A DNA stretch of 63,315 nucleotides, filler included, from an uncultured bacterium (GCA_964609495.1; 18 parts of 18 records of this genome joined end to end with filler, not necessarily neighbours in it), one strand, 5' to 3'. Shown: positions 18,541-63,315, numbered from the whole stretch's first letter. Notes: a model not told the origin generated them from the sequence alone. Program-made: numbers and translations.

Positions 18541-18595
18541 GGATATGATCTCACCCAAATATCGTTCCTCTCAAGAAATCCTCTCTCTCTACTAT

Positions 18596-18637
18596 GTTCC
18601 CTCTCCCCTCGTGGGAGAGGGTTAGGGTGAGGGGGAA
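18596..18637 (+). repeat. REP-like repeat family A
   Basis: CCCTCTCCC-ctcgt-GGGAGAGGG hairpin followed by ttAGGGTGAGGGGG. Confidence 0.9.
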
Positions 18638-18737
18638 GTAAATTTGAATTCAGATTGATATACAGAGCGGGTGCCTAATGCATCTGCTCTTCTTGTAACT
18701 AATAGTAATTCTTAGTTTTTGCGCTTCCAATTTTGAT

Positions 18738-18766: not shown

Positions 18767-18914
18767 AAATAAGGTANNNNNNNNNNNNNNNNNNNNNNNN
18801 NNNNNNNNNNNNNNNNNNNNTTAATTAATTAANNNNNNNNNNNNNNNNNNNNNNNNNNNNNNNNNNNNNNNNNNNNGATATAGTGCTAAGAATTGTCTTA
18901 AGCTCTATCTTGAT

Positions 18915-18956
18915 GTTCCTTCTCCCCTCGTGGGAGAGGGTCAGGGGGAGGGGGGA
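18915..18956 (+). repeat. REP-like repeat family A
   Basis: TCTCCCCTCGTGGGAGAGGGtcAGGGGGAGGGGGG. Confidence 0.9.
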
Positions 18957-19037
18957 TTTATATCTTGACTTCTTAGTAAAAATCTACTAGCACGAAATTT
19001 TACATACTTCCAAGGAGTGAGGAAGGGGTGAAAAAGA

Positions 19038-19073: not shown

Positions 19074-19556
19074 ATCCACGAGTAGGCTGGGTGATCGCGA
19101 AGGCGCTTTGCCTTTGAGGAAAGTCCGAGCTCCATAGGGCAGGATGCTGGATAACATCCAGGAGGGGCGATCCTACGGAATAGTGCAACAGAGAGCAGAC
19201 CGCCAAGATTTAGGAGGAAGTAGTTGGTAGCGATACCAATCGCTTGATCTTCTAAATCTCGGTAAGGGTGAAACGGTAGTGTAAGAGACTACCAGTAGCC
19301 CTGGTGACAGGGTTAGCTGGGCAAACCCCATTCGGAGCAAGATCAAATAGGGGAGGAGAGGCGGCCCGTCTCGCTGAGGGGGAAATCCCCTCTCTATTAC
19401 TCCCGGGTTGATCGCTTGAGGTGGAGAGTAATCTTCATCCTAGATAGATGATCACCACTCTCTTCAAGGGAAGTGAGGGAGGGGGGAGTGATTCTCGCCG
19501 TTTTACTTCAGCTCTTGAGGGGGAACAGAACTCGGCTTATAGGCTTACTCGTGGAT
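19074..19556 (+). ncRNA. rnpB: RNase P RNA, class A
   Basis: GAGGAAAGTCC, AGTGCAACAGA, GGGTGAAACGG, GGCAAACCCC, AACAGAACTCGGCTTA; P1 ATCCACGAGTAGGC pairs with GCTTACTCGTGGAT. Confidence 0.97.
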
Positions 19557-23530: not shown

Positions 23531-23582
23531 AAAAAAGGGAACTTTTGCTGAATCCCATAAAACTCAAGGTTCAAAAGTTCCT
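23531..23582 (+). repeat. Palindromic mini-element family B (about 51 bp), intergenic copy
   Basis: AAAAGGGAACTTTTG...AAAACTCAAGGTTCAAAAGTTCC, matching copies at 48802 and 60241. Confidence 0.8.
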
Positions 23583-23604
23583 AATTAACAGAGAGGTGAG
23601 TAAG

Positions 23605-26106
23605 ATGAAAGCGGTGATTATGGCTGGAGGTTTTGGGACTAGGCTTAGACCTCTAACCAATAACATCCCTAAACCTATAGTTCCTTTAGTAAATAAACCT
23701 GTTATGGAGCATATTATCGACCTTCTGCGGGAACAGGATATCAAGGATATAGTGGTGATCCTTTATCACCAGCCAGAGATCATAGAGACTTACTTCGGAG
23801 ATGGGTCGGATTTCGGGGTTAATATATCTTATGTAGCCGCCGAGAGGGATCTAGGGACCGCGGGTAGCGTCAGGAATGCCGAGGAATATCTTAAGGACAC
23901 CTTTTTGATCATGAGCGGCGATGTCCTCACTGATTTCGATCTGAACGAGGTAATAGATTTCCATCGAAAGAAGGGGGCGATGGCTACCGTCAATTTGACC
24001 CGAGTCGAGGATCCTTCAGCCTACGGAGTCGTTATCACCGATGATGATGGTCGCATTCGCCGCTTTTTGGAGAAGCCCAGTTGGGGAGAGGTCTTCTCCG
24101 ATACGGTGAACACTGGTATATATATCTTGGAGCCTGAGGTCTTGAAGTATGTGCCTCCGCAGGAGAACTTCGACTTCAGTAAGGACTTGTATCCTATCTT
24201 ACTGGAGAATGGAGACCCTTTATTGGGCTACGTGGCAGGTGGCTATTGGAAGGATATAGGGGATCTCATCCAATATCGAAGGGCTCATTATGATATCTTA
24301 GAGGGCAAGGTAAAGGTGGTCGATATACCTGGGGAAGAGATTAGGAGAGGAGTCTGGGTCGGCCGAGGGGTTGATATCGATCCTACGGCGCGAATCTATC
24401 CTCCAGCGATCGTCGGGGATAATGTGAGGATCAAAGAGGAGGCTCAAATCAACGAATTGACGGTGATCGGAGCTAATAGTATTATTGGTCGGGAGGCCTC
24501 TCTCAGTCGAAGTATTATTTGGAATAATGTTTTCATAGGAGATAGAGCGGAATTAAGGGGATGTGTTATAGGACGCCATTGTAACATCAGAGAGGGGACA
24601 TCGATAGATGAAGGGGCGGCCATCTCTGATGAGTGCACGTTGGGCAAGGAAAGTATCATCAAATCGAACGTCAAGATCTGGCCGGGCAAGGTAGTTGATA
24701 GCGGAGCAACGGTAACTATGAGCCTCGTCTGGGGAGGGGAGGGGTCGAAAACCCTATTCAAGCAGAGGGGGATAACGGGGCTCTCCAACATAGAGATATC
24801 TCCTGATTTCGCGGCTAAATTGGGGGCGGCTTACGGCACTATGCTCGATAAATCCGCTTTAGTATTGACTGGTCGAGGTCCTCACCGTTCAGCAAGAATG
24901 ATAAAGAGAGCTATAATAGCCGGACTTTTATCGGCGGGGATAAACGTTTGCGATCTGAGGACAACTCCCACATCTCTACTTCAACATCAGATTAAGAGCA
25001 AGAATGCAGCCGGGGGAGTGCATGTCAGGATATCGCCCGATGACCCTCACTTAGTCGATATCAGGTTCTTCGATGCTAGGGGGATAGACAGCGATAAATC
25101 GACTGAGAGGAAGATAGAGACGCTCTTCTTCAGAGAGGATTATCGAAGGGTATATTCCGAGGAGGTGGGGCAGATAACTCACGCTCCTTATGCGATCGAT
25201 TACTATTCCGAGGATCTTCTCAAATCTATCGATATCTCTTTGATCAAGAGCAGAAAATTTAAGGTTGTGATCGATTATGCGTATGGTAGCTCTTCTTTTA
25301 TATCTCCTTCTATTCTGGGCAAACTAGACTGTGAAGTAGTAGCTCTAAACGCCTATGTAGATGAAGCCAGGATATCGAAGACCAAGTCTGCTTTCCTCGC
25401 CGAATTGGAACAAGTGGGGAGTATAGTTCGCACCTTGAAAGCTGATATGGGAGTGGTAATGGATCCTAGCGCAGAGCAGTTGTTCTTGATTGATGAGAAG
25501 GGGAGGAGGCTTTCCGATTATTCCGCCTTAGCTTTAGCTTCTCTTTTGATCCTAAAGGCAGAGGAAGGGGGAACTATCGCCATTCCAGTTACTGTTCCTA
25601 GCTATATTGAGGAAATAGCCTCCTCATACGGAGGTAAAGTTATCAGGACTCAGGCTAATCCCCGCTCTCTTATGATGGCGGCGGCGAAGGAAAGGGTGGT
25701 CTTCGCCGGCGATGGTAAAGGGGGCTTTATCTTCCCCAATGGAGTATCAGTATTTGATGCGATTTTCTCTTTCGTGAAGCTTTTCGAGTTGATCGCTAAG
25801 GAAGGGAAGGCGGTCTCAGAGATAGTGGAGCTTTTCCCTCCCATTCATATAGCGATGAAGATTATTCCTTGCCCGTGGGAGCTTAAGGGTAAAGTTATGA
25901 GGAAGACTATGGAGGATTCCAGAGATCGCACTACTGAATTGATCGATGGGGTCAAGATCTATCACGATCATAGTTGGATCTTGGTTCTTCCTGATGCTGA
26001 TGAGCCATTAGTGCGCGTCTATGGAGAGGCGGAATCGGACGAGAGTCGAGATGCGCTTTTAGATGAATATGTGAACAGGATAGAGAAGGTAGTGAACGGC
26101 GATTAG
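23605..26106 (+). CDS. Mannose-1-phosphate guanylyltransferase / phosphomannomutase-like fusion
   Basis: AGGFGTRLRPLT, EKP, hexapeptide repeats, C-terminal PGM/PMM fold; ATG 23605 after GAGGTG. Confidence 0.9.
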   Translation: MKAVIMAGGFGTRLRPLTNNIPKPIVPLVNKPVMEHIIDLLREQDIKDIVVILYHQPEIIETYFGDGSDFGVNISYVAAERDLGTAGSVRNAEEYLKDTFLIMSGDVLTDFDLNEVIDFHRKKGAMATVNLTRVEDPSAYGVVITDDDGRIRRFLEKPSWGEVFSDTVNTGIYILEPEVLKYVPPQENFDFSKDLYPILLENGDPLLGYVAGGYWKDIGDLIQYRRAHYDILEGKVKVVDIPGEEIRRGVWVGRGVDIDPTARIYPPAIVGDNVRIKEEAQINELTVIGANSIIGREASLSRSIIWNNVFIGDRAELRGCVIGRHCNIREGTSIDEGAAISDECTLGKESIIKSNVKIWPGKVVDSGATVTMSLVWGGEGSKTLFKQRGITGLSNIEISPDFAAKLGAAYGTMLDKSALVLTGRGPHRSARMIKRAIIAGLLSAGINVCDLRTTPTSLLQHQIKSKNAAGGVHVRISPDDPHLVDIRFFDARGIDSDKSTERKIETLFFREDYRRVYSEEVGQITHAPYAIDYYSEDLLKSIDISLIKSRKFKVVIDYAYGSSSFISPSILGKLDCEVVALNAYVDEARISKTKSAFLAELEQVGSIVRTLKADMGVVMDPSAEQLFLIDEKGRRLSDYSALALASLLILKAEEGGTIAIPVTVPSYIEEIASSYGGKVIRTQANPRSLMMAAAKERVVFAGDGKGGFIFPNGVSVFDAIFSFVKLFELIAKEGKAVSEIVELFPPIHIAMKIIPCPWELKGKVMRKTMEDSRDRTTELIDGVKIYHDHSWILVLPDADEPLVRVYGEAESDESRDALLDEYVNRIEKVVNGD

Positions 26107-26275
26107 AAAAGGGGACTTTTGGTTTTTGCTGAATTAATAAGGCTATCAAAGAATCTTGTTAATTATCACCCTCCCNNNNNNNNNNNNNNNNNNNNNNNNN
26201 NNNNNNNNNNNNNNNNNNNTTAATTAATTAANNNNNNNNNNNNNNNNNNNNNNNNNNNNNNNNNNNNNNNNNNNN

Positions 26276-27339
26276 TAATCCTATATTTAGGATATTTATG
26301 GCTGCATTCTGGTCTCTATCAATTGATATACCACATCCTGGGCAATCGAATACTCTCTTATGTAAAGGTGTCTCTTGAACATACCCACAATTACTGCAAG
26401 TTTTACTCGTGGGTTCAAATCGTCCTATTACAACAAAATGCTTTCCATTCCATAAAGATTTATACTCAAGCTGCCTTCTAAATTCATACCAGGAAACATC
26501 TGCAATCGACTTTGCTAAATGATGATTCTTCATCATCCCCTGGACATTCAAATTCCCCAAGACATACCCCGAATACTTGGCTATCATATCCGAAGTGGTC
26601 TGGTGTAAAAAGTCTAACCTGCAATTCCTTATCTTTCTATGAATCTTTTGAACTTTCCTCCTCTGTCTATACCTATTCTTACTTCCTTTCTGCTTAATCT
26701 CCTCTGCTCCCTGGCTAACTTTTTCTCGTATCTCCTTAGATATTTGGGATTCTTGATTACTGTCCCATCTGATAAAACTGCAAACTCCTTTAGTCCTACA
26801 TCTATACCTACTAGGTTATTAACTTCCTTCTCCTTATCAGGTATCTCTACTTCACAAGTTACCGAGCAATACCACTGATCTCCATCTTGAGTTATCGTGA
26901 TATGCTTGGGCTTGCCTTGTAATGCTCTATACTTTCTCCATCTCACCCAACCCACCTTGGGAATATAAACTGCTCCTCTCCTTAGCTTCCATCTCTGAGG
27001 AATTGTAAAACTATCTCTCATCTTACTTTTTGCCTTGAATTTCGGAAATCCTCTATCATTCTCGAAACAATCTCTTAACGCTTTATCTAAGTGTAATGCT
27101 ACCTGCTGTAAGGACTGAGAAAATGAAAGGGTTAAAAAGCCATATTCCTCCTTCATCTTCGGAATAGAAAGAATCATCTCACGAGCAAATTTGAACTTAC
27201 CTGTCCGCTTGTAATGTTCAATATTATCTTCTAAAAGGTAATTCCAAAGAAATCTTGCATTACCACCATGCTGTAAAAGCATCTGTCCTTGCTCTTCGGT
27301 TGGATACAGCCGATATCTAAATCCCTTTAGAATCTTCAT
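26276..27339 (-). pseudogene. tnpB: TnpB (IS200/IS605) with frameshift near 26685, 3' end cut by contig
   Basis: YRLYPT, RuvC-I GIDVG, Zn finger CSNC/CPGC, DRDQNAA; split over two frames; RuvC-II reads LGNL instead of E(D/N)L. Confidence 0.9.
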
Positions 27340-27358
27340 TTCTTCTTAGCTACCTTTC

Positions 27359-27408
27359 GTGCCAATTCATCCCCGAGGCAAGCATCGGGGTCTTCTTGGC
27401 ACAATTTT
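27359..27408 (-). mobile_element. IS200/IS605 end upstream of tnpB
   Basis: TTCAT-CCCCGA-ggcaagca-TCGGGG hairpin inside a GTGCCAA/TTGGCAC stem. Confidence 0.75.
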
Positions 27409-27529
27409 ATAACTTTTCAGTCTGGGATAAGTTGGGCATTCTCATTCCGAAATAGGGAGAAGGGCAATTTAGATTTTTTCTGCTCTTTTCTTTGAGCAGG
27501 AAGAGTAGAAGGGCGCCTCAAAAAAGAAA

Positions 27530-27604
27530 TGGCTCCCCGGGCAGGACTCGAACCTGCAACCAACCGGTTAACAGCCGGTTGCTCTGCCATTGAGCTACCG
27601 AGGA
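27530..27604 (-). tRNA. tRNA-Asn (GTT)
   Basis: TCCTCGG...CTGTTAA...GGTTCGAGTCC...CCGGGGAGCCA cloverleaf with encoded CCA. Confidence 0.98.
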
Positions 27605-27619
27605 GCATTGGCTAGTTAT

Positions 27620-27648
27620 ATTATAATATATTTTGCTTGCTTTGGCAA
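27620..27648 (-). promoter_or_regulatory. tRNA-Asn promoter
   Basis: TTGCCA-17-TATAAT. Confidence 0.75.
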
Positions 27649-27680
27649 GAGGATTCTTAAAATTTTGGGCAAATATTTAT

Positions 27681-28023
27681 AAAAAACGGCGTGAAAACCC
27701 CTACTCTTGCGGTAGGGGATGAAACGCCTAGCAGATATAGGTGTTCCATCCCCGCGATTGTAGAAGGCTAACATAGAGCCTTCTTTACTCCACCTTGCGG
27801 TGGGTTGGTCCTCATCGGGGGGTTAAGGAGGGTTTTTAAGCTCGACAGCACTGTTCCTACCTCACAGAACTGTTTAACCATCAAGCCACAGAGCGGAAAG
27901 CTTGAGGAGCACTCGCCGGTGTGTATATATCTCACCCTCTTAACTGCTACTAACTTGCGTTAGTCCCCTAATCAACGTAGGCTTGTCCTTCAAGCCTCGC
28001 CCTTTATGGGCGGGGTCGTTGAC
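27681..28023 (-). mobile_element. Non-autonomous IS200/IS605 (iscB-type) element without an ORF
   Basis: Starts GTCAACGACCCCGCCC-ataaa-GGGCG; ends TTCATCCCCTAC-cgcaaga-GTAGGGGTTTTC; 343 bp, no coding frame. Confidence 0.8.
27760..28023 (-). ncRNA. omegaRNA / HEARO-like RNA, standalone
   Basis: Ordered motifs GTCAAC, GTTGATTAG, CACACC, TGCTCCTCAAG, CTCTGTG, TTAAACAG, TAACCCCCCGATGAGG with many hairpins; recognised by eye, 3' end approximate. Confidence 0.8.
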
Positions 28024-28074
28024 GCTGGCAAACTAGATTATAGTGGATATTTTTAAGCAGGAATAGAAATCGGT

Positions 28075-28103
28075 TTGTTATATCTACCTTATTTTGATAT
28101 AAT
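28075..28103 (+). promoter_or_regulatory. Promoter of HTH/coiled-coil gene
   Basis: TTGTTA-17-TATAAT with extended TG. Confidence 0.6.
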
Positions 28104-28128
28104 GACATAAGAAAGGGGTTGTCTACTT

Positions 28129-28620
28129 ATGTCCACTTATGATGTCACCAATTATCGACTAACTGTAAAGCAAGCAGCAGAGATGCTAAATGTATCAGTA
28201 AGAACTATTAGAAGATGGGTCAAGAAAGGGAAACTGTCATCAATACTTGTCCCTGGTAAGAAACGGCAAGAAATAAGACTATCAGAGAAAGAAGTGCTGA
28301 ATCTTAAAGGTGATCGTGAGGTGACAAGTCCAGATATAGAAGTGACAAAAGATGACATTGTCACCAATGATGTCAGGACAACTGAATTTAAGGAGTTACT
28401 AAATCGTTATGAGAACTTAGTTTTTCAATTAGGACAGCTTCAAAGTCAAGTTGTCCACATTAAGGAACTAGAGGCTGAAGCTCAATCACTTCGAGAAAGA
28501 GAAAAATTATTAGAAGAGGAGAACAAGAGATTAAGAGAGGAACTAGAGAAGGCAAAGCGATCATGGTGGCAGAAGCTAAAGTCGTGGTGGAGAAAAGAAG
28601 ATTTGAAGACAAAATTTTGA
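28129..28620 (+). CDS. MerR/excisionase-type HTH protein with coiled coil and WW tail
   Basis: LTVKQAAEMLNVSVRTIRRWVKKGKL; heptad region; RSWWQKLKSWW. Confidence 0.85.
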   Translation: MSTYDVTNYRLTVKQAAEMLNVSVRTIRRWVKKGKLSSILVPGKKRQEIRLSEKEVLNLKGDREVTSPDIEVTKDDIVTNDVRTTEFKELLNRYENLVFQLGQLQSQVVHIKELEAEAQSLREREKLLEEENKRLREELEKAKRSWWQKLKSWWRKEDLKTKF

Positions 28621-28710
28621 GGAAAGTGAGTTGGAAACTGGATTTTCAGTTTAGCTTTAAATGTGAAACTATAGATAATTCAAATATACTCGCGCGCATT
28701 CAAATATAAA

Positions 28711-28866
28711 CTAAGGCAATACATAATAAGCTCCTCCTGGGGGATTCCCAAGCATCTTTAATTTACCCTGCTTGCACATTCTACTCAATAGTCGGTATGC
28801 TTGGTTTCCATTCAACTTGCATAATTCTATAACTTCAGCCCGCTTAATCTGACCATGCTTCTTCAC
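28711..28866 (-). pseudogene. C-terminal winged-helix fragment of a gene interrupted by the iscB element (AlbA_2/RecG-C-like)
   Basis: Translates VKKHGQIKRAEVIELCKLNGNQAYRLLSRMCKQGKLKMLGNPPGGAYYVLP* and begins exactly at the element end. Confidence 0.65.
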
Positions 28867-29851
28867 GATCTCTCCACAGGAAGCCCACGATCTTTAGTCG
28901 TGGGAGGAAGGTGAAGATAATGAATCTGCCAACCACTAATTCTCTGAATTAATCTCATGCATCTCCAAGATTTACTTTTAATGATTCTTTTCCCATCAGT
29001 ATCTTTTAAATCAAAATAGCCACTCTTTCTAACAGCTACTCTTCCTCTCCATATACCTTTATATTTACCCTTTGGCACAATTGCTATAACTTGATCCCCA
29101 GTTTGAAATCCGAAGTAAAACTTTATTCTACCTCTATGAGATTTCGGGAAACCTTTATCTGTATTAGCAATTCTTCTATGTCCTCTCCCTATCGCCTTCC
29201 ATATACAGAGAAAAGTGGTCTTAATATCAATCCTAACAGGCATATTACCAACACATAGAGCGTCATAGTAGTGAGTCTTAGGAAATCCCCTTTCTATCCT
29301 TTGCTTCTTTGTCCTTCCTCCCGTGGCACACTCTACCTTATACCCCAACAAACAAAGCTCCTCATAAAGCCTCCACCTGGTAGCATTTATCATCGCAGCA
29401 TCTTTAAGAGGCTTCTTAGCCAGACTTTGTATCTCGGAATGTCCAAACTCTTCTGCTATCCTGTTCCCCTTCTTCCTATTACACTTCTTGCAAGCTATTG
29501 TCAGGTTGCTTACCTTATCTGTCCCACCTCGACTCTTCGGGACTATATGATCTACCTCAAGAGGAACATTTTCTATCCCACAGTAAGCACACTTTCGACC
29601 CCATTTCTCTAGCAGATACTCTCTGACTTCATAACCGAAAAGTTCCCCCCTCTGATACTCAACCCCTCTAATCTCAGGATTCTCCATAAGCTGAGTATCG
29701 AACTTGACATGCTCGGTGCTTATCTCCTTAATCGGTAATAACCTTGATAACTTCTTAACTAAATTGATAGTCTGATCTACTCTGGCCTGCAACGAGGGAG
29801 GTAACCATCCTTCTTTACGCTTACGATTAAGGAAACGAGCTTTTCTATATC
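28863..29851 (-). CDS. iscB: IscB RNA-guided endonuclease, 5' truncated
   Basis: YRKARFLNR..GWLPPSL, RuvC-II E.VKFD, HNH CAYC..EVDHIVP..SNL..CKKCN, RuvC-III HYYDA; end hairpin CCCACGA/TCGTGGG at 28884-28904. Confidence 0.95.
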
Positions 29852-29951: not shown

Positions 29952-30018
29952 AAGGGCTTTGGTTCAATCTCAGTTTTCCCTCTCCCCTCGTGGGAGAGGG
30001 ATAGGGAGAGGGGGAATT
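29952..30018 (+). repeat. REP-like repeat family A with GTTCAATCTCAG linker
   Basis: Matches copies at 40437 and 63211; at contig start. Confidence 0.9.
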
Positions 30019-34943: not shown

Positions 34944-35786
34944 ATCTTATATAGCACTGTGATTCAGATCCATTCTGAGGAGGATGTGAACTTTAATCCA
35001 GCTAAAGGGGAATGTATCTACTCCCTCTTCTTTGAAATTCTGGATGAGATCGATCCCGAGCTGGCTAAGAAGTTACACGATTCTACTAGTTCTAAACCCT
35101 TTACTGTCTCTCCTCTTCAAGCTAAGTATGTAAGGAGAGAGGGAGAACTATTTATCCCTAAAGGATACAGATGTTGGTTTCGCTTTACTTTGCTAGATGA
35201 TTTCATCTTCCAGCAGATGATAAGATACTTCCTGCGCTCGGAGGTGAACATCGAGCTTGAGGGAAAGAAATTTCAGATCGATGAGGTCGTCTCTGCTCCT
35301 GTAGATAAAATTCCCTGGAGTGGATACAGTGATTGGGAGCTACTATATGAGCAAGCTGAACCTCACCAGAAGATCAGATTGAAATTCTTTTCCCCTACTA
35401 CCTTTCGGAAGAAGGATATCAATTATCTCTTGCCAGATCCTCAATTGGTCTTTGGGAATTTACTTTCAAGATGGAATAACTTCTCCAAGATAAAGATGGA
35501 GGAGGAGCTGGAGGATTTCATCGCGGAGAGGATAATAGTTTCGAGAATCACTGGGTTGAGGACGAAAACGATGCACTTTTTTAATGGGATCCAGATCGGT
35601 TTTATCGGGGAGTGTGAATTTGAGATCAGGAAGGCGGAGAGCGATAAGGAGTGGAGTAAGAGGATAAATACTCTAGCTGATTTCGCTTTCTACTCCGGGG
35701 TTGGCTATAAGACGACTATGGGGATGGGACAGACAAGGCGAATACGAATGCGTAACACTCCGATAGGGGTGAAGCGAAATGAATGA
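34944..35786 (+). CDS. cas6: CRISPR endoribonuclease Cas6
   Basis: LHD..SKPFTVS, FFSPTTF, FAFYSGVGYKTTMGMG. Confidence 0.95.
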   Translation: MLYSTVIQIHSEEDVNFNPAKGECIYSLFFEILDEIDPELAKKLHDSTSSKPFTVSPLQAKYVRREGELFIPKGYRCWFRFTLLDDFIFQQMIRYFLRSEVNIELEGKKFQIDEVVSAPVDKIPWSGYSDWELLYEQAEPHQKIRLKFFSPTTFRKKDINYLLPDPQLVFGNLLSRWNNFSKIKMEEELEDFIAERIIVSRITGLRTKTMHFFNGIQIGFIGECEFEIRKAESDKEWSKRINTLADFAFYSGVGYKTTMGMGQTRRIRMRNTPIGVKRNE

Positions 35787-36093
35787 TAGATATATGATCC
35801 CTTTCTATGCGCTTAATACCTATGTCTATTGCCGACGTCGCTTTTATTACGAATATATTCTTCACGAATGGGAGGATAATTATCATACGATAGAGGGTGA
35901 ACTTCAACATAAGCGAGTGCATCAGGTAGGAACTCAAAAAGTGAGAGGAAGATTTCATAACCGAAGTGTGGAGATATCCTCAGATAGATTGGGATTATAT
36001 GGGGTGGTGGATTTAATAGAAAAAAGTTCTGGAGCGGTCTTTCCCGTTGAGTATAAGAAAGGTAGGATGAGCGATTGGAAAAACGCACGTTAG
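35779..36093 (+). pseudogene. cas4: Cas4, truncated after motif III
   Basis: YVYCRR, GVVDLIE, PVEYKKG present; QxxxY and the C-terminal three Cys are missing. Confidence 0.88.
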
Positions 36094-40436: not shown

Positions 40437-40507
40437 CTTCCGCCTCACCCTACCCTCTCCCACGAGGGGAGAGGGGACACTGAGATTGAACTGAAGCCCT
40501 GTAGTCC
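40437..40507 (-). repeat. REP-like repeat family A
   Basis: Reverse copy with the same linker as 29952; at contig end. Confidence 0.9.
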
Positions 40508-44841: not shown

Positions 44842-47185
44842 TTAAAATTGACCAACCCTCTTCCTCCTGAATAACCTGATAAGCGATCCGATAATTAAAA
44901 TTGTCAAAGTAGTGAGAGTTATTATCAATCCTATCTTATAGGAGAGAGGATCATAGGCGAAACGAACCGNNNNNNNNNNCATAATTAGCTACATATATCT
45001 CGGCTTCTTTTCCATCTACGTATGCTTTCCATCCCGGATAATAGTTCTCACTTAGCACTAAAAAACTATCCTGATCTGATCTAGTTTTGAGGATGATCTC
45101 CTCAGGTAGATAACTTGAGATCTGGACGCTACTCTCATCGAAGGGAAAATCCCCCGCTGGAATCAAGGATGGCTTCTCCTCCAAGATCACATATCGAGTA
45201 GGATCGAAGTTGGCACTAAGCAATTCCTTGGCTACATCAGCCTTATCAGGCAATATCTTAGTGCGAGGAACGAGATAGGCTCGAGGCAAGCAATTCATAT
45301 TTTCATACACTCTGACCAATCCCGAATTGATCTGCTCATAACCATCAATATATATACTCCTTAAGATGATGATATACTTCATGTTCAACAAATTGACCAG
45401 AGGGGAGGAGAAATTATCGAAGTTGAAGAAGTTCAAATCTCGGTCTAATTTTTCATCGCTAGGCAAAGCTCGATTATCTATGAGCCAGAGCAAATCCATA
45501 TATCGCTTTATCGCCATAGGATTGTAGCCGATGACGTTCTGCTCACGATAGATCATTGCGGCGGTGTTATGAATTCCGAACAGCTCCCAACCCAGACTCC
45601 GATGAGTCAAAATTCTATAGGGTTTTGGTTTATCCTTCAGGAGTTCGAGGAAATCAAATTTCCTGGCGAGAACCTCCTTACCCGTAGATTGACCAGGGTT
45701 ATATCCGATCCCAAAGAAGAAGAGATCAGTGATAAGTATAGCTAGGAAAGCGATCTTGATTATTAGATCGGGCAGCCATCCCTTCTCCTTCAATATAACG
45801 ACTATTACTGTAGCAATATAAAATATTAAGGAGAGATTCATACTAAATATGACTGTTTCTACGTCTCGCATATAGAAGGGAGGGGAAGTTCGTAACTTCC
45901 AATTCGCCCAGATCACTAAGGCTATAATCGGGAGCGAAAGTATCATAAGCACCTTGGCGAGTAAGCTCAAGTGAGAGCGCTTCCACTCGATAACTAATCC
46001 CTCCATCGCCATCCCTAAAAGCACTGAGGTGGAGAAGGCAAGGATATAGGTGAAACGAGCGGGAACTCGGAAAGAATCATACTTGGGAAGTATATGATAT
46101 AGAAGGGGATTGAGAGGTGTCGATTTTCCCAAGGCTAGCAAGATAGATACGATCGCCGTTGCGGTGAAGAAGTAAGTGTACATATTCCTCTTTCTAGCTA
46201 AGGCAAATAGTATCATCATCAGAGGAAGTATCCCCACGTAGCTCGTCATCTCCCAATAGTTCCAATCTCCCCAATATGGCCCTTTAACATGATTGCCAAA
46301 GAAGTCGGGAACGACCAATCCGATCAGGTTATGGAACTTCAAAGCGTAGGTATTGGCGAAATCCAGAGTCACTCCCTCAGCTCGAGGGGAGAGGGAGGAG
46401 TATTCCGCGCTAGGCAGAAATTGAACAGCCCCTATCCCGATCATCACTACTATAATTAACACCAACGCTACTATGGAGATAAGGATTTGATTCAGTCCTC
46501 CATCATTCCAGTGGAAGGAGATAAAACGCATAATGGTGTAGAAGACGAGCAATAAGCCGATATAGTAAGTCATCTGGCCGGAACTTCCCATAAGTTGTAT
46601 CCCTAAGAATACCCCAGCTAAGATCGCATACCTCAACATCCTCTTCTGCCAGAATTTCTCATAGAAGAGCATAATTAGAGGCAACCAAGCGATAGTGCAA
46701 AGCATCGTGTAATGCCTAACGTGAACCACGAAGAATCCGCAGAACATAAAGCTTACTGCTCCCATAAGAGAGCTAAAGCGATTGAGCCTCAAAGTTCTCA
46801 AGAAGAAGTAGGTGAACAGTCCTATTAGAAAGAAGTGCAAAGCGACACTGACTGATAAAGCGGTATAGGTCGGCAGAATATAAAATAGAACGTTTATAGG
46901 ATAGAAGATCGCCGCTTGAGGATCTGCTTGCAGGGGCTCTCCTCCGAACATATAAGGATTCCAGAGAGGGATATGCCCAGTTCTTACCACCTCGGAGATA
47001 TAATTCCTGAGAGGATGGTAGAAGTTTGCTATATCCTCAAAGTGTAAGATCCTTCCTTGAAAGAGGATTGGCCAGAAGAAGATAAGGGTGAGAGCCAATA
47101 GGAATACTAATATAAGCGCATCTAATATCCACAGCCCATTCTCATCACTTACGGCTGAATTTCCTTCTCTAAGTTTAATGCTCAT
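44842..47185 (-). CDS. YfhO-family (GT-C) membrane protein
   Basis: PLWNPY, FRVPARF, ENYYPGWKAYVDG; true C-terminus VRFAYDPLSYKIG...GQF* resumes after the 11-N gap at 44970-44980. Confidence 0.9.
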
Positions 47186-47302: not shown

Positions 47303-48503
47303 GTTGTACTCAACTACAATAGGTACGCCTGTAGACCTATTTCTCACTGTTATACTGAGCGCTTTGAGTGGTTTGATCGTCGGGGAGATCACCGGGGGAG
47401 GAGAACTAAACTACATGTTAGTAGGTTTCATCGGGGGAGCAATCGGAATATACAGCGTTTCCAAGATCAGACAGATAACCCAATTAACGAAAGTTGGAGT
47501 AGCAGTTATTTCTGCTAATATCCTAGTGATCTTTGGTCTCGAACTATTAAGCCTTCGTTCTCCAGAGCAAGCCCTCTTGAATTCCCTATGGGGAGTACCC
47601 AGTGGATTGCTATCCACAGTGCTTACCGCTGGTAGCTTGCCCTTAATAGAGAATATCTTTCACATAACTACGAACTTCAAACTACTGGAGCTAGCTAGCC
47701 CAGCTCATCCCCTTTTGAAGAGGCTATTGTTGGAAGCCTCTGGCACCTATAGTCACAGTATAGTCATCGGAAATTTAGCGGAGACAGCTGCCGAGGCTGT
47801 AGGGGCTAATCCTCTTTTAGCCCGGGTTGGGGCTTATTATCACGATATAGGAAAGATAAAACGCCCCTATTTCTTCATCGAGAATCAAATAGGAGAGCAG
47901 CGCAATCCCCATAATAAGATATCTCCTACCCTAAGCTTCCTCACGATCTCCTCCCATGTGAAGGACGGCGTAGAGATGGCTTATAATTATCATCTCCCCG
48001 AATCTATAATCGATATCATAAGACAACATCATGGAACTAATTATAATGCCTATTTCTATAACAAGGCTCGTGATTATTCAGGTAAAGATCACCATCTCTC
48101 GCTCGATGATTTTCGCTATGAAGGACCTAAACCTCGGACGAAGGAAGCCGCGATAATTTTTCTGGCTGATTCGGTCGAGGCGGCTACTAGATCCTTATCT
48201 AAGCCCTCTCCTAGCCGTATTAGAGGGATGGTTCGGGAGATAATAAAGAGCAAAGTCGATGATGGACAACTAGATGAATGCGATCTCACCTTCCGAGATA
48301 TAGATAAGATCAGCCAAAGCTTCGAGAGGATATTGATGGCTATGTTCCATGTCCGACTAGAGTATCCAAAGGTCTCGAAAGTTAAGAGTATATCCTCATA
48401 TAACCCTAAAGTAGAGAAGGGGAGTAATGGTAGAGGTAATAATAAAGGATCTTCAGAAGAAGTTCGAGCTAGATCGCAAATCAACGAAAGAATTAATAAA
48501 TGA
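47303..48503 (+). CDS. 7TM-HD phosphohydrolase (PgpH-like c-di-AMP phosphodiesterase), 5' truncated
   Basis: GTYSHS, YYHDIGK, FFIENQ, QHHGT, LADSVEA; upstream of ybeY. Confidence 0.9.
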
Positions 48504-48978
48504 TATCTTGATCAGCGAAAATCCCGAGGCTGATGATATAGAGGTAAGCCTGGTTTTCACCGATGACAGCCATATCGAGAAACTCAACAAGCAATATCTA
48601 GGGAGAGAAGGGGCTACAGATGTTATCTCCTTCTATTTGGACGATGAACGAACCCCAGATGGCAAGCTTATCCTAGGCGATATAGTTATCTCAGTGGATA
48701 CCGCCGAAAGGCAAGCCCAGGAGCAGGGTCACAGCTTTACAGAGGAGCTAGAGATGTTAATCGTTCATGGGATGCTTCATCTTCTGGGTTATGACCATGA
48801 GAAAAAGGAAACTTTTGCCGGTAACAAAACTCAAGCGAAAAGGAAACTTTTGCCTCAAATAGGACTCAAGGTAAAAAAGTTCCCTTTTAAAAAAGTTCCC
48901 TTTTCAGATGACGAGAGCGAGATATTTTGGTCCAAGCAAAACTCCCTTTTGAAAGCCTTCAAAACTAGGAAAAGATAA
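48427..48978 (+). CDS. ybeY: rRNA maturation RNase YbeY with a 34-aa insertion
   Basis: TDVISF, LGDIVIS, HGMLHLLGYDH. Confidence 0.95.
   Translation: MVEVIIKDLQKKFELDRKSTKELINDILISENPEADDIEVSLVFTDDSHIEKLNKQYLGREGATDVISFYLDDERTPDGKLILGDIVISVDTAERQAQEQGHSFTEELEMLIVHGMLHLLGYDHEKKETFAGNKTQAKRKLLPQIGLKVKKFPFKKVPFSDDESEIFWSKQNSLLKAFKTRKR
48802..48903 (+). repeat. Two nested 51-bp family B elements, in frame within ybeY
   Basis: Inner 48838-48888; outer 48802-48837 plus 48889-48903; ends AAAAGGAAACTTTT / AAAAGTTCCCTTT(T). Confidence 0.88.
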
Positions 48979-50104
48979 GCCTCTTCAATAAATTTCTTCC
49001 TCGGAAGACCTCCTTATAAGGTCTCCTTCCTAAGATAGCATCAGCTAAAATATCCCCGATATCCTTTCTCCTTTGGGCTAGATGAATAGCCCAGTTTAGA
49101 ACTCTATGTCTATAGAATAATTTCTGAAAGCGGGCGGAAAGGTATAGATCGTCTCCATATTCCGCCCGCCATCTTTCCTCATAAGATAGGATATCACCAG
49201 CGATTATCGCCTGAGCGGCGCATCGTCCTCCCTTCATCGCAAAGTATATACCTTCCCCGGTAACGGCATTAACATGGGCCGCCGCATCTCCTATAAGAGC
49301 CCAATTATCTCCAGCGATAGGTATATCGAAGAAGGCTGGAACATCGGCCGCTGGCAAAAGCGCTCCATAAGGCTTTCTGATGAAGTCGGAGGGAAGTCTC
49401 CTCGCCGCAGGATGACGATCTAAAAATTCGTCCAATATCCTTAGCAGATGAGGGATGCCCACTTTAGACCCGATCCCCACCGATATCACTTTTGATTTAG
49501 GAAATATCCAGATGTAACCTAAGTAGCCTCCAGAAATACTGAAGTATATCTCCATTGAATTCTTGAACGAACTCTTTATATCATCAGGATCAGCAGGGAT
49601 GTGATAACCAGTGCAGATAACCTTCGTAGCTTTAGGAAAAGGGGGGGCAGAGACCACCTTTCTAACCATAGATCTTGCCCCATCAGCTCCAATAATTAGA
49701 TCGGATTCGATCGCCCTTTGCGGAGTGATTATAGTCCAATAAGCTCTCCCTCTATCTATAGCCGATACCCTCTCTGGAAAGAAACTCGCCTCTTGTTTTG
49801 CCTGCTCTAACAGATAACTATCGAATTCCTTCCTCATAATCAGAGCCGCATCCTGGGGAGTAGATATCTCTATATCCTCTCCAGCAGGACTCTCTAGGAG
49901 CAGATAATCGACTCTCCTCTCCAATAGGGAAGGGGGGATGACAAATTCTTCAAGAACCCGAGACGATAATGCTCCTCCGCAGGGCTTCTCTCGAGGATGA
50001 GAGCCATCGAATAAAGCTACTTTTATCCCAGCTCGTCCCAACTCATAGGCGCATATCGCTCCGGCTGGACCTCCTCCTACTATAGCAACCTCATATCGCT
50101 TCAA
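48965..50104 (-). CDS. Geranylgeranyl reductase family flavoprotein
   Basis: GGGPAG, EKPCGG, GADG, YIWIFPK, GDAA..GEGIYFAM. Confidence 0.9.
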   Translation of the reverse strand: MKRYEVAIVGGGPAGAICAYELGRAGIKVALFDGSHPREKPCGGALSSRVLEEFVIPPSLLERRVDYLLLESPAGEDIEISTPQDAALIMRKEFDSYLLEQAKQEASFFPERVSAIDRGRAYWTIITPQRAIESDLIIGADGARSMVRKVVSAPPFPKATKVICTGYHIPADPDDIKSSFKNSMEIYFSISGGYLGYIWIFPKSKVISVGIGSKVGIPHLLRILDEFLDRHPAARRLPSDFIRKPYGALLPAADVPAFFDIPIAGDNWALIGDAAAHVNAVTGEGIYFAMKGGRCAAQAIIAGDILSYEERWRAEYGDDLYLSARFQKLFYRHRVLNWAIHLAQRRKDIGDILADAILGRRPYKEVFRGRNLLKRLIFS

Positions 50105-50196
50105 ATCGTTTATCTCCCAATTGAGAAGCCAGCAGATTGTCTCGATAGATCATATTCACTCCGAGCTTGCATTATGCGCTGTGACATCCCCTTTAC

Positions 50197-50451
50197 CTAT
50201 TCTTCCCTCTCGACCTCGATGGTGCACTCTGCTACCAAGGCAGCAATTGCTCCTATTGCGGCCCAAATTGGAGCAACTAAGACTCCTACAGCCGCTACAG
50301 TTAAAGGAACCTCCATCAACGTCTTGCCCTCTTCGTTCTTAATGATAAGTCTCCTGATATTCCCCTCATGGAGTATGTTTTTGATCGTCTCCAGCACCTT
50401 GTTTCCAGAAACTTTGACCTCTTCCCTCTTAACCTTTTTCTCCTCTCCCAT
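50197..50451 (-). CDS. DUF4342 family protein
   Basis: EGNIRRLIIK, EVPLT, AALVAECTIEVER. Confidence 0.85.
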   Translation of the reverse strand: MGEEKKVKREEVKVSGNKVLETIKNILHEGNIRRLIIKNEEGKTLMEVPLTVAAVGVLVAPIWAAIGAIAALVAECTIEVEREE

Positions 50452-50575
50452 CTTTTTGCCTCCTTTTTAACTGGANNNNNNNNNNNNNNNNNNNNNNNNN
50501 NNNNNNNNNNNNNNNNNNNTTAATTAATTAANNNNNNNNNNNNNNNNNNNNNNNNNNNNNNNNNNNNNNNNNNNN

Positions 50576-51705: not shown

Positions 51706-51852
51706 TTAGTGAGTTCAAGATGTGATTTCCCCCTCACCCTATCCCTCTCCCACGAGGGGAGAGGGTTTCTTGAGAGAACTGCTTGCTCTTTTTATTTCCC
51801 CTCCCTTGATGGGAGGGGTTAGGGGAGGGTGATTTAAGATGAGTCCAAGACC
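51706..51852. repeat. Composite (BIME-like) family A repeat with two inverted units
   Basis: CCCCCTCACCC..CCCTCTCCCACGAGGGGAGAGGG, linker, CCCCTCCCTTGATGGGAGGGGTTAGGGGAGGG; TGAGTTCAAGA/TGAGTCCAAGA flanks. Confidence 0.9.
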
Positions 51853-52904: not shown

Positions 52905-53000
52905 AGACTGCCCCCCTTATCTTAATTGAATAACATATCACAAAGTATAGCACTATGAGAACAGGTCGTCAAATGAGATTCGAGCTATTCAGAAGCGAAA

Positions 53001-53727
53001 TTATCCCTTGGTTATGATCTTAATAGCGTCTTCAGTCCTCTGAACTTGCGTTTTCGCCCCGATTTGCTTAAATATCTCTAACGCTTGTTGAAGATGCTCT
53101 AGCGCCTCTTCATTCTTCCCTAGAGCGCTATAGCTCGATCCAATATTAGCTAAGGCAGAAGCTTCTCCTTTCCTATATCCTATCTCTCTAGTTATATTTA
53201 ACGCTTGTTGAAGATGTTCTAGCGCCTCTTCATTCTTCCCTAGAGCGCTATAGCTCGATCCAATATTAATTAAGGCAGAAGCTTCTCCCTTCCTATATCC
53301 TATCTCTCTAGTTATCTTTAACGCTTGTTGAAAATACTCTAGTGCCTTCTCACTCTCTCTTAGATCGCTATAGATTCGTCCGATCTTCCCTAACTCGTTC
53401 GCTTCTCCTTGTCTATATCCTATTTCTCTATATATCTTTAATGCTTCTTGAAAATACTCTAGTGCCTTCTCATCCTCTCCTAGATCGCTATAGATAGCTC
53501 CGATGTCCCCTAAATCAGAAGCTTCTCCTTGTCTATAGCCTATCTCTCTGTCTATCTTTAACGCCTCCTGAAAATACTCTAGCGCCTTCTCATTCTCTCC
53601 TAGATCGCTATAGAGAATTCCGATTTCCCCTAACTGAATAGCCTCTCCTTCTCTATATCCTATCTCTCTAGTTATCTTTAACGCCTCCTGAAAATACTCC
53701 AGCGCCTTCTCATTCTCTCCTAGATCG
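53001..53727 (-). CDS. TPR protein C-terminal fragment (absent from the ORF track)
   Basis: About 5.5 tandem 120-bp units, e.g. EYFQEALKIDREIGYRQGEASDLGDIGAIYSDLGEDEKAL; ends ...KIITKG*. Confidence 0.9.
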
Positions 53728-53827
53728 NNNNNNNNNNNNNNNNNNNNNNNNNNNNNNNNNNNNNNNNNNNNTTAATTAATTAANNNNNNNNNNNNNNNNN
53801 NNNNNNNNNNNNNNNNNNNNNNNNNNN

Positions 53828-55511
53828 TATCATTCTCTCCTGTAGAATAATAGATATTACCGATGTTTCCTAAATCATCTGCTTCTCCTCGTCTACATCC
53901 TATCCCTCTATCTATCTTTAACGCTTCCTGATGATACTTTAGAGCCTTCCCACTCTTCCCTAGATCTTTATAAATTATCCCGATGTTTCCTAAGTCAGCA
54001 GCTTCTTCTCGTTTATATCCTAGCTCCCGATGAACCCCTAACGCTTCCTTATGATACTCCAGGGCCTTCTCCTTCTCCCCTAGATCGCCATAGATTAGCC
54101 CGATGTTACCTAATAACATTCCTCTATGTTCTAAACCCAGCTTTAACTCATTACAGAAATCTATCGCCTTGAGCATCTCATCTCTAAGGGATAATATAAT
54201 CCCAAGATTGTATTTTGTCTCGCCTATTTTCCTCATACACTCAACGAATCCCTTTTTATCCTCCGCCTCCTCCAGATGTTGAGGCCAATATCTCAAAGCA
54301 TCCAAATCCCGCTTGTTCTTCTCAAAGACTTGCTTATAACAGCTTGCTATGGTGCTATGCATCTCTTTGAGATCTTCGCCTTCCGATATCAGTCTTTCTT
54401 TCACATAATCGCTGAATATCTGGTGATAGAGCCTATATTTATCCCTTTCCTCTTTTCTCTTCTCAACTACTCGCTTGAGCTTGAAATCTTTAAATTGCTT
54501 GGCAACCGATCTTCGCTCTAATCCTGTCATCGTCGCTATAAAGGGGATATCCACATAGGTATATACACAGGAGAGATAATCGACTATCTTCACCTGCTCA
54601 TCGTTCAGTTCCTCGTATAAATTACGCATCAACTTCCCGATATCAGACTCATTTATATAAGTAGGCAGTTCCTCAATTGCCTTCTCCAGATCCTTAGCTC
54701 CTCTCAACAACTTAACAACAGAGTCTATCACGATTGGATATCCTCGGGGATCTTCAGGACTCCCCACATATTTGTCGCACAAGGCACGTATCATATCTGG
54801 TATTAATCTGGATCCGATCGAAGAGGATCTAAACAGCTTGTAAATCTCATCATAGGTAAGCCATCCTAAGCTCTCGATCACTTTTAGGTTTAGAGCTTCC
54901 CGATGAAACTTAGAATCCTCGGCTATGACATCACCTTCTCGCTGGGCTATTACCATCTTAACATAATGGGGTGGTAATTTTTTAGCGATAGACCGAAGGT
55001 TCTCAAGATGTTCCTCCCCATCAAGTTTATCAAGTCTATCCACTGGATCTATAAAGAAGATAAGCCTTTGCTTGCCAATTCTCCTTTCCGCTAAGGCATC
55101 AAGGGCATCAATAAACCTTTCCCTTGGAGATCTTCTATCCTCATCAATCAAGGTAGCAAGCATTTTCCCCACAGGGATGATAGCAATTTTTTCTATCTCA
55201 AACGCCTTCAGAACTTCTTTCCACTCCCCTCTCCAGAAAAATTTACCCTTTCTGAAGTCAACTAACATCTTCAATAGATATTCTTCAGGTTTATCCGTAG
55301 AATTAATATCATCATAGAAGAAGATCCAATTATCATTTTCACTACTAGCGATATCCGCAAATTCCTGCAACAAGCGCGACTTGCCCATCCCTTGTCTTCC
55401 AATAACGAGCAACGTTCCGCTCCTATCATCCTCTAGGAACTTGCGGAATATCTCTATCTCCTTCTCTCGTCCTACGAACTTTAGCTCGGATTTGGACTTT
55501 GGATTGCTCAT
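53828..55511 (-). CDS. STAND-like P-loop NTPase with TPR repeats, 3' truncated
   Basis: FVGREKE, GRQGMGKS, FFIDPVD, GYP, YRLYH, then 40-aa TPR units. Confidence 0.85.
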
Positions 55512-57184: not shown

Positions 57185-57326
57185 GGTCTTGAACTCACCT
57201 TAAAGGTCTTTACTTCGTAACCACCCTCCTCTAACCTCTCCCATCAAGGGAGGGGGAACTAAAGAGAGCAAGCTTAATCTGGATGTTCCCTCTCCCCTCA
57301 TGGGAGAGGGCTAGGGTGAGGGGGAG
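57185..57326. repeat. Composite (BIME-like) family A repeat
   Basis: Collinear with the reverse complement of 51706-51852. Confidence 0.9.
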
Positions 57327-57348
57327 ATCGGTGAAATGGGGGGATAAA

Positions 57349-60234: not shown

Positions 60235-60330
60235 CCTTAGATAAAGGAAACTTTTGCCGGTAACAAAACTCAAGGTTCAAAAGTTTCCTTATGGGAGAGG
60301 GATAGGGGAGGGGGAATTATATCTTGAACC
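60235..60330 (+). repeat. Family A repeat with a 51-bp family B element (60241-60291) in its loop
   Basis: CCTTAG[ATAAAGGAAACTTTTG...CAAAAGTTTCCTTA]TGGGAGAGGGATAGGGG. Confidence 0.85.
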
Positions 60331-60426
60331 CATTAATAAAAAGTAAGGATATGATACTTCGATTATCTGCTCAAAGACCAGAGGGCAGAAGATTTCTCTA
60401 TTAGGTTAAAGCGAGGTAGATAGAAA

Positions 60427-63210: not shown

Positions 63211-63315
63211 GCTAGTGAGTTCAAGATATAGTTCCCCCTCACCCTCCTCCTAACCCCCTCCCATCGAGGGGGGAGCTAAAGGACTTTAGTTCAATCTCAG
63301 TGTTCCCTCTCCCCT
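63211..63315. repeat. Composite family A repeat, cut by window end
   Basis: TAGTGAGTTCAAGAT..CCCCCTCACCCTCC..CCCTCCCATCGAGGGGGG..GTTCAATCTCAGTGTTCCCTCTCCCCT. Confidence 0.88.

Follow-up and report, generated by a model that had tools for sequence, protein, structure and literature searches.

The window analysed here, a stretch of 63,315 bases, consists of 18 contigs of one fragmented draft genome, arranged largest first (3,840 down to 3,081 nt). Seventeen linkers of 100 nt each (N44-TTAATTAATTAA-N44, within 3841-60234) join them and place stops in all six frames, leaving 61,605 non-linker bases (61.6 kb) in which 58 ORFs were scanned. Because the contigs are artificially joined, ORFs or repeats that touch a linker are joining artefacts, and gene neighbourhood is meaningful within a single contig only. 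A run of 10 N at 44970-44979, inside a YfhO-like gene, is not a linker. Tandem 120-nt repeats (52939-54113) extend to a contig end and continue from the beginning of the following contig, on which an AAA ATPase with TPR repeats is encoded; assembly may have split a single repeat-rich gene, of which the two contigs would be adjacent pieces. At 34959-36090 another contig carries Cas6 and a short ORF resembling Cas4, and no CRISPR array was seen in the window.

The ybeY gene, which encodes the endoribonuclease YbeY of ribosome maturation, lies at 48427..48978 (+) on a contig of 3,173 nt (47303-50475) and specifies 183 aa including an insert. Residues 18-129 match Pfam PF02130 (E 3.5e-37; 127.6 bits against a curated cut-off of 25), and the zinc ligands H114, H118 and H124 (H-x3-H-x5-H) are invariant in the homologue alignment. 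In its database record, P0001, the gene codes 156 aa from an internal TTG at 48508; we place the start at the ATG at 48427, which is supported by the two close relatives, beginning MVEVIIKD or MIEVIIKD. From this ATG, ybeY overlaps the upstream 7TM-HD gene by 77 nt.

Just past the HGMLHLLGYDH metal motif, ybeY carries two left arms and two right arms of a palindromic repeat. Together they make up a composite insertion of 102 nt at 48805..48906 (or 48804-48905) on the plus strand, coding KETFAGNKTQAKRKLLPQIGLKVKKFPFKKVPFS (residues 127-160) and absent from a close relative, P0003. The insert lies between K126 and D161, two codons past the third zinc-binding His and just ahead of the C-terminal helix, and its 34 residues include 11 Lys or Arg. 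A preliminary description of this DNA had reported 102 bp and 34 extra residues after the metal motif. Their presence stands, but the span given there (48802..48903) has to move 3 nt rightward, to 48805-48906, to agree with the empty allele of P0003. Removal of the insert was also said to yield GYDHE-SDDESEIF; the actual product, by comparison with HEKDDESEIF in P0003, is GYDHEK-DDESEIF, so that K126 is host-derived and S160 is coded by the element.

The empty allele and the interrupted protein

A YbeY search of 5.8 billion protein clusters gave 2,356 matches among 2,442 candidates, and the best 120 were listed. P0003 (149 aa, from a different source, 91% identical to the window YbeY in alignment) reads GYDHEKDDESEIF (HEKD|DESEIF). 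Compared with the window protein it lacks exactly 34 residues, and its spacing is that of more distant YbeY proteins. P0002 (152 aa, again from a different source, 96% identical in alignment) reads GYDHEKKETFDESEIF (HEKKETF-DESEIF); its KETF is the peptide of the left arm AAGGAAACTTTT, at the same codon as the window insert, and it has one Asp fewer. After these two and the window's own record, the next match in the best 120 of 2,356 is only 45% identical. The H-x3-H-x5-H motif is present in 118 of the 120 listed homologues, and the tail past its third His measures 17-38 residues in 117 of these 118 and 59 solely in the window protein. No comparable insert occurs in the other 117 listed motif-bearing YbeY proteins.

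As judged by these relatives, the 102 nt is an insertion and not an ancestral loop, since P0003 lacks exactly the 34 residues, P0002 has KETF only and the 117 other listed proteins are without the insert. P0003 is also the empty allele that the preliminary description had proposed to seek by aligning YbeY with its relatives, and close homologues sharing the whole loop did not turn up among the 120 listed. The KETF of P0002 looks like a deletion footprint, and probably is one.

The composite is open in one of six frames, the frame used by ybeY, and single copies are open in two to three of six; when the 102 nt is shuffled at matched composition, any given frame stays open in about 7% of cases. 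The outer of the two units is read as KETFA...KKVPF, with the same frame before and after the inner unit, which is what an inner unit of 3n length should give. The earlier proposal that a 3n length lets the element colonise conserved genes goes further than one gene in 61.6 kb can carry, and purifying selection fits equally well: the open frame would be what survival under selection leaves behind.

An AlphaFold2 model built with 50 aligned sequences has a mean pLDDT of 81, with the core above 90. Values are 84-97 in blocks up to residue 120 and over 161-180, and the last three residues average 66; over residues 128-159 pLDDT falls below 50 and the model has no secondary structure. The model superimposes on solved YbeY structures with target-normalised TM scores of 0.89 (1oz9) and 0.80 (1xm5), and sequence alignments to four of five solved chains end at residues 126-128. 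The insert is thus modelled as a lysine-rich, disordered surface loop between the third metal ligand and the C-terminal helix. In the model the YbeY fold tolerates the 34-residue insert, and we infer that the 183-aa protein still works. A phmmer search with the 34-aa peptide against 1.84 billion representatives (E <=0.001) found no match in other proteins, at low power for a 17-residue unit. A word-based search with residues 125-164 among proteins of 100-321 aa, also of low power given the variable middle, recovered only the window YbeY among 33 candidates.

A dispersed palindromic repeat and its nested copies

The arms found in ybeY recur elsewhere in the window. Allowing at most one mismatch, AAGGAAACTTTT matches seven times, at 23535, 48805, 48840, 48875(-), 48891(-), 60244 and 60279(-), against 0.64 expected, and none of 100 shuffles reaches seven. 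All seven matches fall in the ybeY copies or in the copies at 23535 and 60244/60279. A pattern requiring both arms matches solely the inner ybeY copy and the 60244 copy in the window, with 0.00 expected. There are four copies at three loci, on three contigs, far above chance, and the three loci (ybeY, 23531 and 60241) belong to a single assembly.

Copy c1 (23531..23584, +) is intergenic, between a response-regulator gene and a nucleotidyltransferase/phosphomutase gene; its variable segment is 3 nt longer, and its DNA hairpin is predicted at -8.0 kcal/mol (z -2.89). Copy c2 (60241..60292, +) is intergenic upstream of pyrG, starts 6 nt into its contig and has perfect 13-bp arms (DNA hairpin -11.3 kcal/mol, z -4.86). 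Both had been noted earlier as lying outside genes at 23531 and 60241, and both prove intact and intergenic. The PyrG encoded on the c2 contig has its best non-self match in the protein collection at 64% identity, with names from Zixibacteria, Tectomicrobia and Gemmatimonadota; since it is at most 64% identical to anything else, the host belongs to a poorly sampled, deep uncultured lineage.

When the copies are aligned, the blocks GGRAACTTTTGC and ACTCAAGG and the right arm are common to all, and the 9-13-nt segment between the blocks differs. By sequence, each unit is about 51 nt long and comprises 13-14-nt A/T-rich inverted arms around GGRAAC/GTTYCC, a variable segment of 9-13 nt and a conserved ACTCAAGG core. 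A search for more diverged copies in the window, by nhmmer with three copies and by an arm search allowing three mismatches, returned only the known copies and a weak, possible degenerate left-arm remnant at 26106..26135 (+; AAAAGGGGACTTTTGG..TTTTTGCTGAAT). The remnant is a three-mismatch match with an nhmmer E of 4.5, alone not significant. Four copies in 61,605 bases amount to about one per 15 kb, a density read from a length-selected sample of contigs in which repeats tend to break assembly. The ACTCAAGG core lies on the same strand as the surrounding genes in all four copies (23531, 48805, 48838 and 60241), an agreement that at three loci is not significant.

Several other classes of element were considered and set aside. 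The cores of attC sites read RYYYAAC/GTTRRRY, and the arms do not fit them. A CRISPR repeat was rejected for lack of an array, and a terminator because the stem is A/T-rich and has its T-run inside. An Rfam scan of the window found nothing over the element at gathering score; the best permissive hit was mir-208, at 19.7 bits against a cut-off of 56.4. Searching 185,579 species genomes, the source genome not among them, with AAGGRAACTTTTGCN{8,25}ACTCAAG gave 11 loci in unrelated MAGs, one match each, three of them in one archaeal gene family. As none of the 11 has the right arm, we regard them as chance matches and not as family copies, so that the exact pattern is absent from the other species sampled. 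The window also holds an RNase P RNA of class A (19079-19555, +; 293.7 bits), 477 nt long against a model of 367 positions and expanded at three places (by about 40, 18 and 52 nt) that do not resemble the element.

The four arms in ybeY resolve into one unit inside another. The left part of the outer unit (48805..48837, +) holds a left arm, the variable segment GGTAACAAA and the ACTCAAG core, and here 48804-48835 equals 60243-60274 at 32/32. A complete 51-nt palindromic copy follows (48838..48888, +; DNA hairpin -8.4 kcal/mol, z -2.46), placed in the outer loop beside the right arm. The right part of the outer unit (48889..48906, +) is the right arm AAAAAAGTTCCCTTTT plus CA. Scanning 48700-49000, we found the left halves (48803-48837 and 48838-48872, 35 nt each) to be 77% identical and the right halves (48872-48887 and 48888-48903) identical over all 16 nt. 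Every left arm pairs with every right arm in this interval, the four pairings covering 14-15 nt at 93% complementarity. Within the left halves the arms agree at 17/17 nt, and the 9-nt variable segments, GGTAACAAA in the outer and TCAAATAGG in the inner unit, are unrelated. Once 48838-48888 is removed, the outer unit measures 42 nt from GGRAAC to GTTYC, against 42 in the inner copy, 42 in c2 and 45 in c1.

With the same arms beside unrelated variable segments, and with the outer unit back at 42 nt without the inner one, nesting is, on the sequence, a better reading than duplication. The preliminary description had likewise seen one 51-bp unit (48838-48888) inside another, and the arm repeats and the restored 42-nt span bear this out. 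We consider it probable that the 102 nt in ybeY is a nested, in-frame insertion of a dispersed palindromic repeat whose family is specific to this lineage. The 32/32 match of the outer left part to c2 points to recent common descent or spread. The outer right arm matches the inner copy and not c2, so that the outer unit looks chimeric, which would imply an unseen subfamily or local gene conversion by its neighbour.

A double insert could instead be an artefact of assembly or amplification, in which repeat-induced misjoining or a chimeric product has altered a real gene with one copy or none. The contigs are about 3 kb and several end in repeats, c2 itself lies 6 nt from a contig start, and the sole protein record with the insert derives from the same 3,173-nt contig. 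This explanation is nevertheless very unlikely. The frame is kept although few shuffles (about 7%) would keep it, the variable segments of the two units differ, and the outer unit is complete and of canonical length. The left-arm peptide also stands at the same codon in the independent P0002, which implies that an element was in a relative's ybeY and argues against an artefact of this assembly.

All four copies are predicted to form hairpins as DNA and as RNA. Folded as single-stranded DNA, the composite gives one hairpin set in the loop of another (-16.0 kcal/mol, z -2.2, with single copies at z -2.5 to -4.9), the outer arms pairing around the inner hairpin; its RNA fold reaches -26.3 kcal/mol (z -1.94). 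One might suppose from this that the host has co-opted the repeat and keeps it for its use, the basic loop aiding RNA binding by YbeY or the mRNA hairpin regulating the operon. The loop is strongly basic and sits beside the active site of an RNA-binding enzyme, the four copies share the direction of the local genes, and the composite has the RNA fold just described. Yet the closest relatives manage without the insert, which is itself predicted to be disordered; the RNA z-score is only -1.94, and the agreement in orientation, seen at three loci, lacks significance. We therefore hold co-option to be highly improbable.

A second, larger family of dispersed palindromes occurs in the window, with a core of CCCTCTCCCCTCGTGGGAGAGGG followed by TAGGGTGAGGGGGAA. 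Its members lie at 18578-18639, 18897-18958, 29957-30018, 40438-40490, 51727-51819, 57234-57328, 60292-60357 and 63232-63315, often at contig ends, so this family probably breaks the assembly.

Insertion site and proposed mobilisation

At the ybeY site the insert ends and the flanks have at most 1 nt in common, taking the flanks to be those set by the empty-allele protein and assuming them unchanged since insertion. No target duplication of more than 1 nt is therefore visible there; other sites are ambiguous because of their A-rich flanks. The four left flanks (..GAGAAA, ..CAAGCG, ..CCTTAGAT and ..ACATCG) have no clear common target word in this sample of four. Nor does the variable segment behave as a target guide: c2 and the outer ybeY unit both carry GGTAACAAA, yet their flanks are unrelated.

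Among the 58 ORFs in 61.6 kb there is no transposase able to act on the element and no RAYT, in keeping with the earlier remark that no mobiliser is visible in the window. The region 26228-29851 of one contig does contain IS200/IS605-type remnants: a TnpB split into two ORFs (26228-26587 and 26629-27339, -), a HEARO RNA (27804-28023, -; 113 bits) and an IscB-like RRXRR+HNH ORF (28863-29792, -). A tRNA (27533-27604, -) and a MerR/HTH_17 ORF (28129-28620, +) are interspersed with them. We rejected a link between these remnants and the element: nhmmer detects no similarity, and the 8-mer AAGGAAAC at 29829 is within chance expectation.

One conventional reading would make the element a classical MITE, an internally deleted IS with terminal inverted repeats of 14 nt, which a DDE transposase from another part of the genome would bind. 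It has in its favour the inverted ends (14-15 nt, 93% complementarity), the dispersal of the copies and the in-frame fusions described for MITEs in excerpts of PMC10969869 and PMC5896051. Such an origin is unlikely, however, as the ybeY site has no target duplication above 1 nt when the flanks are set by the empty allele, no parent IS with these ends is found in the window, and about 51 nt is small next to the 70-300 or 100-400 bp that excerpted sources give for bacterial MITEs.

The missing target duplication would also suit a process with no transposase at all, in which the hairpin is copied by errors of repair or replication (template switching, gene conversion, filler DNA at breaks) and local recombination produces the left-left-right-right order. 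The mosaic outer unit, with its left part equal to c2 at 32/32 and its right arm equal to the inner copy at 16/16, would follow naturally, as would the in-frame deletion of most of the palindrome in the 152-aa allele. What makes this improbable is that conserved arms and core beside unrelated variable segments, at spans of 42, 42, 42 and 45 nt, look like a selected, replicating unit. There is also about one copy per 15 kb, and families already known to share this shape are connected with Y1 transposases in the excerpted accounts of PMC3116915 and PMC3733652.

The reading we prefer is that the repeat is non-autonomous and most likely moved in trans. One copy would have entered ybeY between K126 and D161, and a second copy, with a different variable segment, would then have entered the first one's loop, adjoining the right arm. 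Since the units are 3n long and the used frame has no stop, ybeY stays open and would be read through as a 34-residue loop; frame-breaking insertions would be lost. As the enzyme we favour a RAYT-type or IS200/IS605 TnpA-type transposase of the HUH/tyrosine (Y1) class, which would recognise a single-strand hairpin and leave no target duplication. The shape of the hairpin, its small size, the absence of duplication and the position of copies at hairpin loops lead us to this choice, for which the IS200/IS605-family cargo of the assembly is a supporting context; we offer it tentatively, as less likely than not. Of the features that define IS200/IS605-derived elements, the hairpin and the lack of duplication are present, and a fixed 4-5-nt word with the insertion on its 3' side is unclear with four sites.

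The position of the copies suggests a bolder version. The inner copy immediately precedes the right arm of the outer unit. In ybeY, the reconstructed empty site folds at -10.0 kcal/mol, against -6.76 ± 2.19 in shuffles (about 1.5 sd below), as a weak stem whose right strand begins immediately 3' of the junction. Copy c2 runs straight into the right half of a member of the second palindromic family (..CCCTCTCCCCTCGTGGGAGAGGG..) whose left half is hidden by the contig break, which would put c2 at the expected loop position of that palindrome. Together with unit lengths that differ by 0 or 3 nt only, these placements hint at an element of about 51 nt that seeks the junction of loop and right arm in other hairpins, its own copies included. 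Its 3n length and two stop-free forward frames would let it persist in essential genes, and it would be moved by an enzyme not yet linked to such repeats, in a lineage without a sequenced close relative. Taken as a whole, this version is unlikely.

Comparison with known repeat families

The family itself had gone unrecognised in the preliminary description, which knew a parallel in Rickettsia only. As regards sequence that judgement holds, but the kind of element is known beyond Rickettsia, from the in-frame intragenic REPs excerpted from PMC3733652. The element forms a new family within a kind of small palindromic DNA that is already known, without the tags and sizes of RPEs and of GTAG/CGTC REPs. 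It is best described as a REP/RPE-like, non-autonomous palindromic repeat that is probably mobile. Literature on YbeY together with palindromic repeats yielded nothing relevant among the matches listed.

Cyanobacterial small dispersed repeats also occur inserted in one another. Papers that cite Elhai et al. 2008 put such repeats at about 20 bp and call them possibly mobile. On those citing descriptions, they resemble the ybeY element in being very small and thought mobile.

Rickettsia palindromic elements (RPEs) of about 150 bp lie in frame in many Rickettsia genes (excerpt of PMC10969869). Like the ybeY repeat, they are dispersed palindromes set in frame in conserved genes and read through as peptide, and the excerpted texts of PMC10969869 and PMC3733652 argue that RPE peptides are compatible with the host fold. 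RPEs differ in being about 100-150 bp long, in belonging to Rickettsia and in ending, in some cases, with CGTC; the ybeY element is about 51 nt and has no CGTC inside.

The closest parallels reported, within the excerpted literature, are the GTAG/CGTC-tagged REPs of 20-40 bp that Di Nocera et al. 2013 (PMC3733652) describe within known genes, where they occur singly, as dimers or in clusters and code for 20-82 residues. Certain genes there carry two insertions, and certain families are located within other palindromes. The resemblance extends to form, as both are short intragenic stem-loops (REP stems of 5-13 bp, loops of 2-20 nt), some within palindromes. The differences are equally definite. 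Neither tag occurs in the ybeY-type element at any of three loci, and the sole GACG, at 48910, is host sequence that the empty allele also codes. At about 51 nt the element exceeds the 20-40 bp given for the REPs as excerpted; its stem has 13-14 bp, and in the inner copy 23 nt separate the arms. The ybeY copies are nested and not arranged as head-to-head or tail-to-tail dimers.

REPINs, which are associated with RAYTs, resemble our element in forming a hairpin whose ends are conserved and whose spacer is less so. By the excerpted account of PMC3116915, their excision leaves about 6 bp of one end behind, a remnant that parallels the KETF of the 152-aa allele. REPINs are, however, doublets of REPs with about 71 nt between conserved 16-mers and are extragenic in that account, and the window has no RAYT. 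The Coxiella repeats QMITE1 and QMITE2 are likewise small, non-autonomous and at times in frame in ORFs, where they contribute extra residues, as in enhC, whose end gains 33 (excerpt of PMC5896051). One of these families is about 400 bp with a 21-bp TIR, far larger than the ybeY element. Compared with MITEs in general, terminal inverted repeats are present in the element and target-site duplication is absent at the ybeY site. The element works like REP, RPE and MITE families and is a member of none as defined, being longer than REPs and shorter than RPEs and MITEs.

The ybeY locus is a natural case of selfish hairpin repeats remodelling a small, highly conserved enzyme; it offers a case study and a new family for a principle already in print. 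With two residues between it and a catalytic metal ligand, the insert provides a ready test of insertion tolerance in an active-site-proximal loop. Three almost identical alleles seem to represent the site when empty, when doubly occupied and, probably, after a deletion that left a footprint, and so would bear on how such insertions are lost in frame. The locus further contributes a repeat family for a lineage whose genomes have hardly been sampled.
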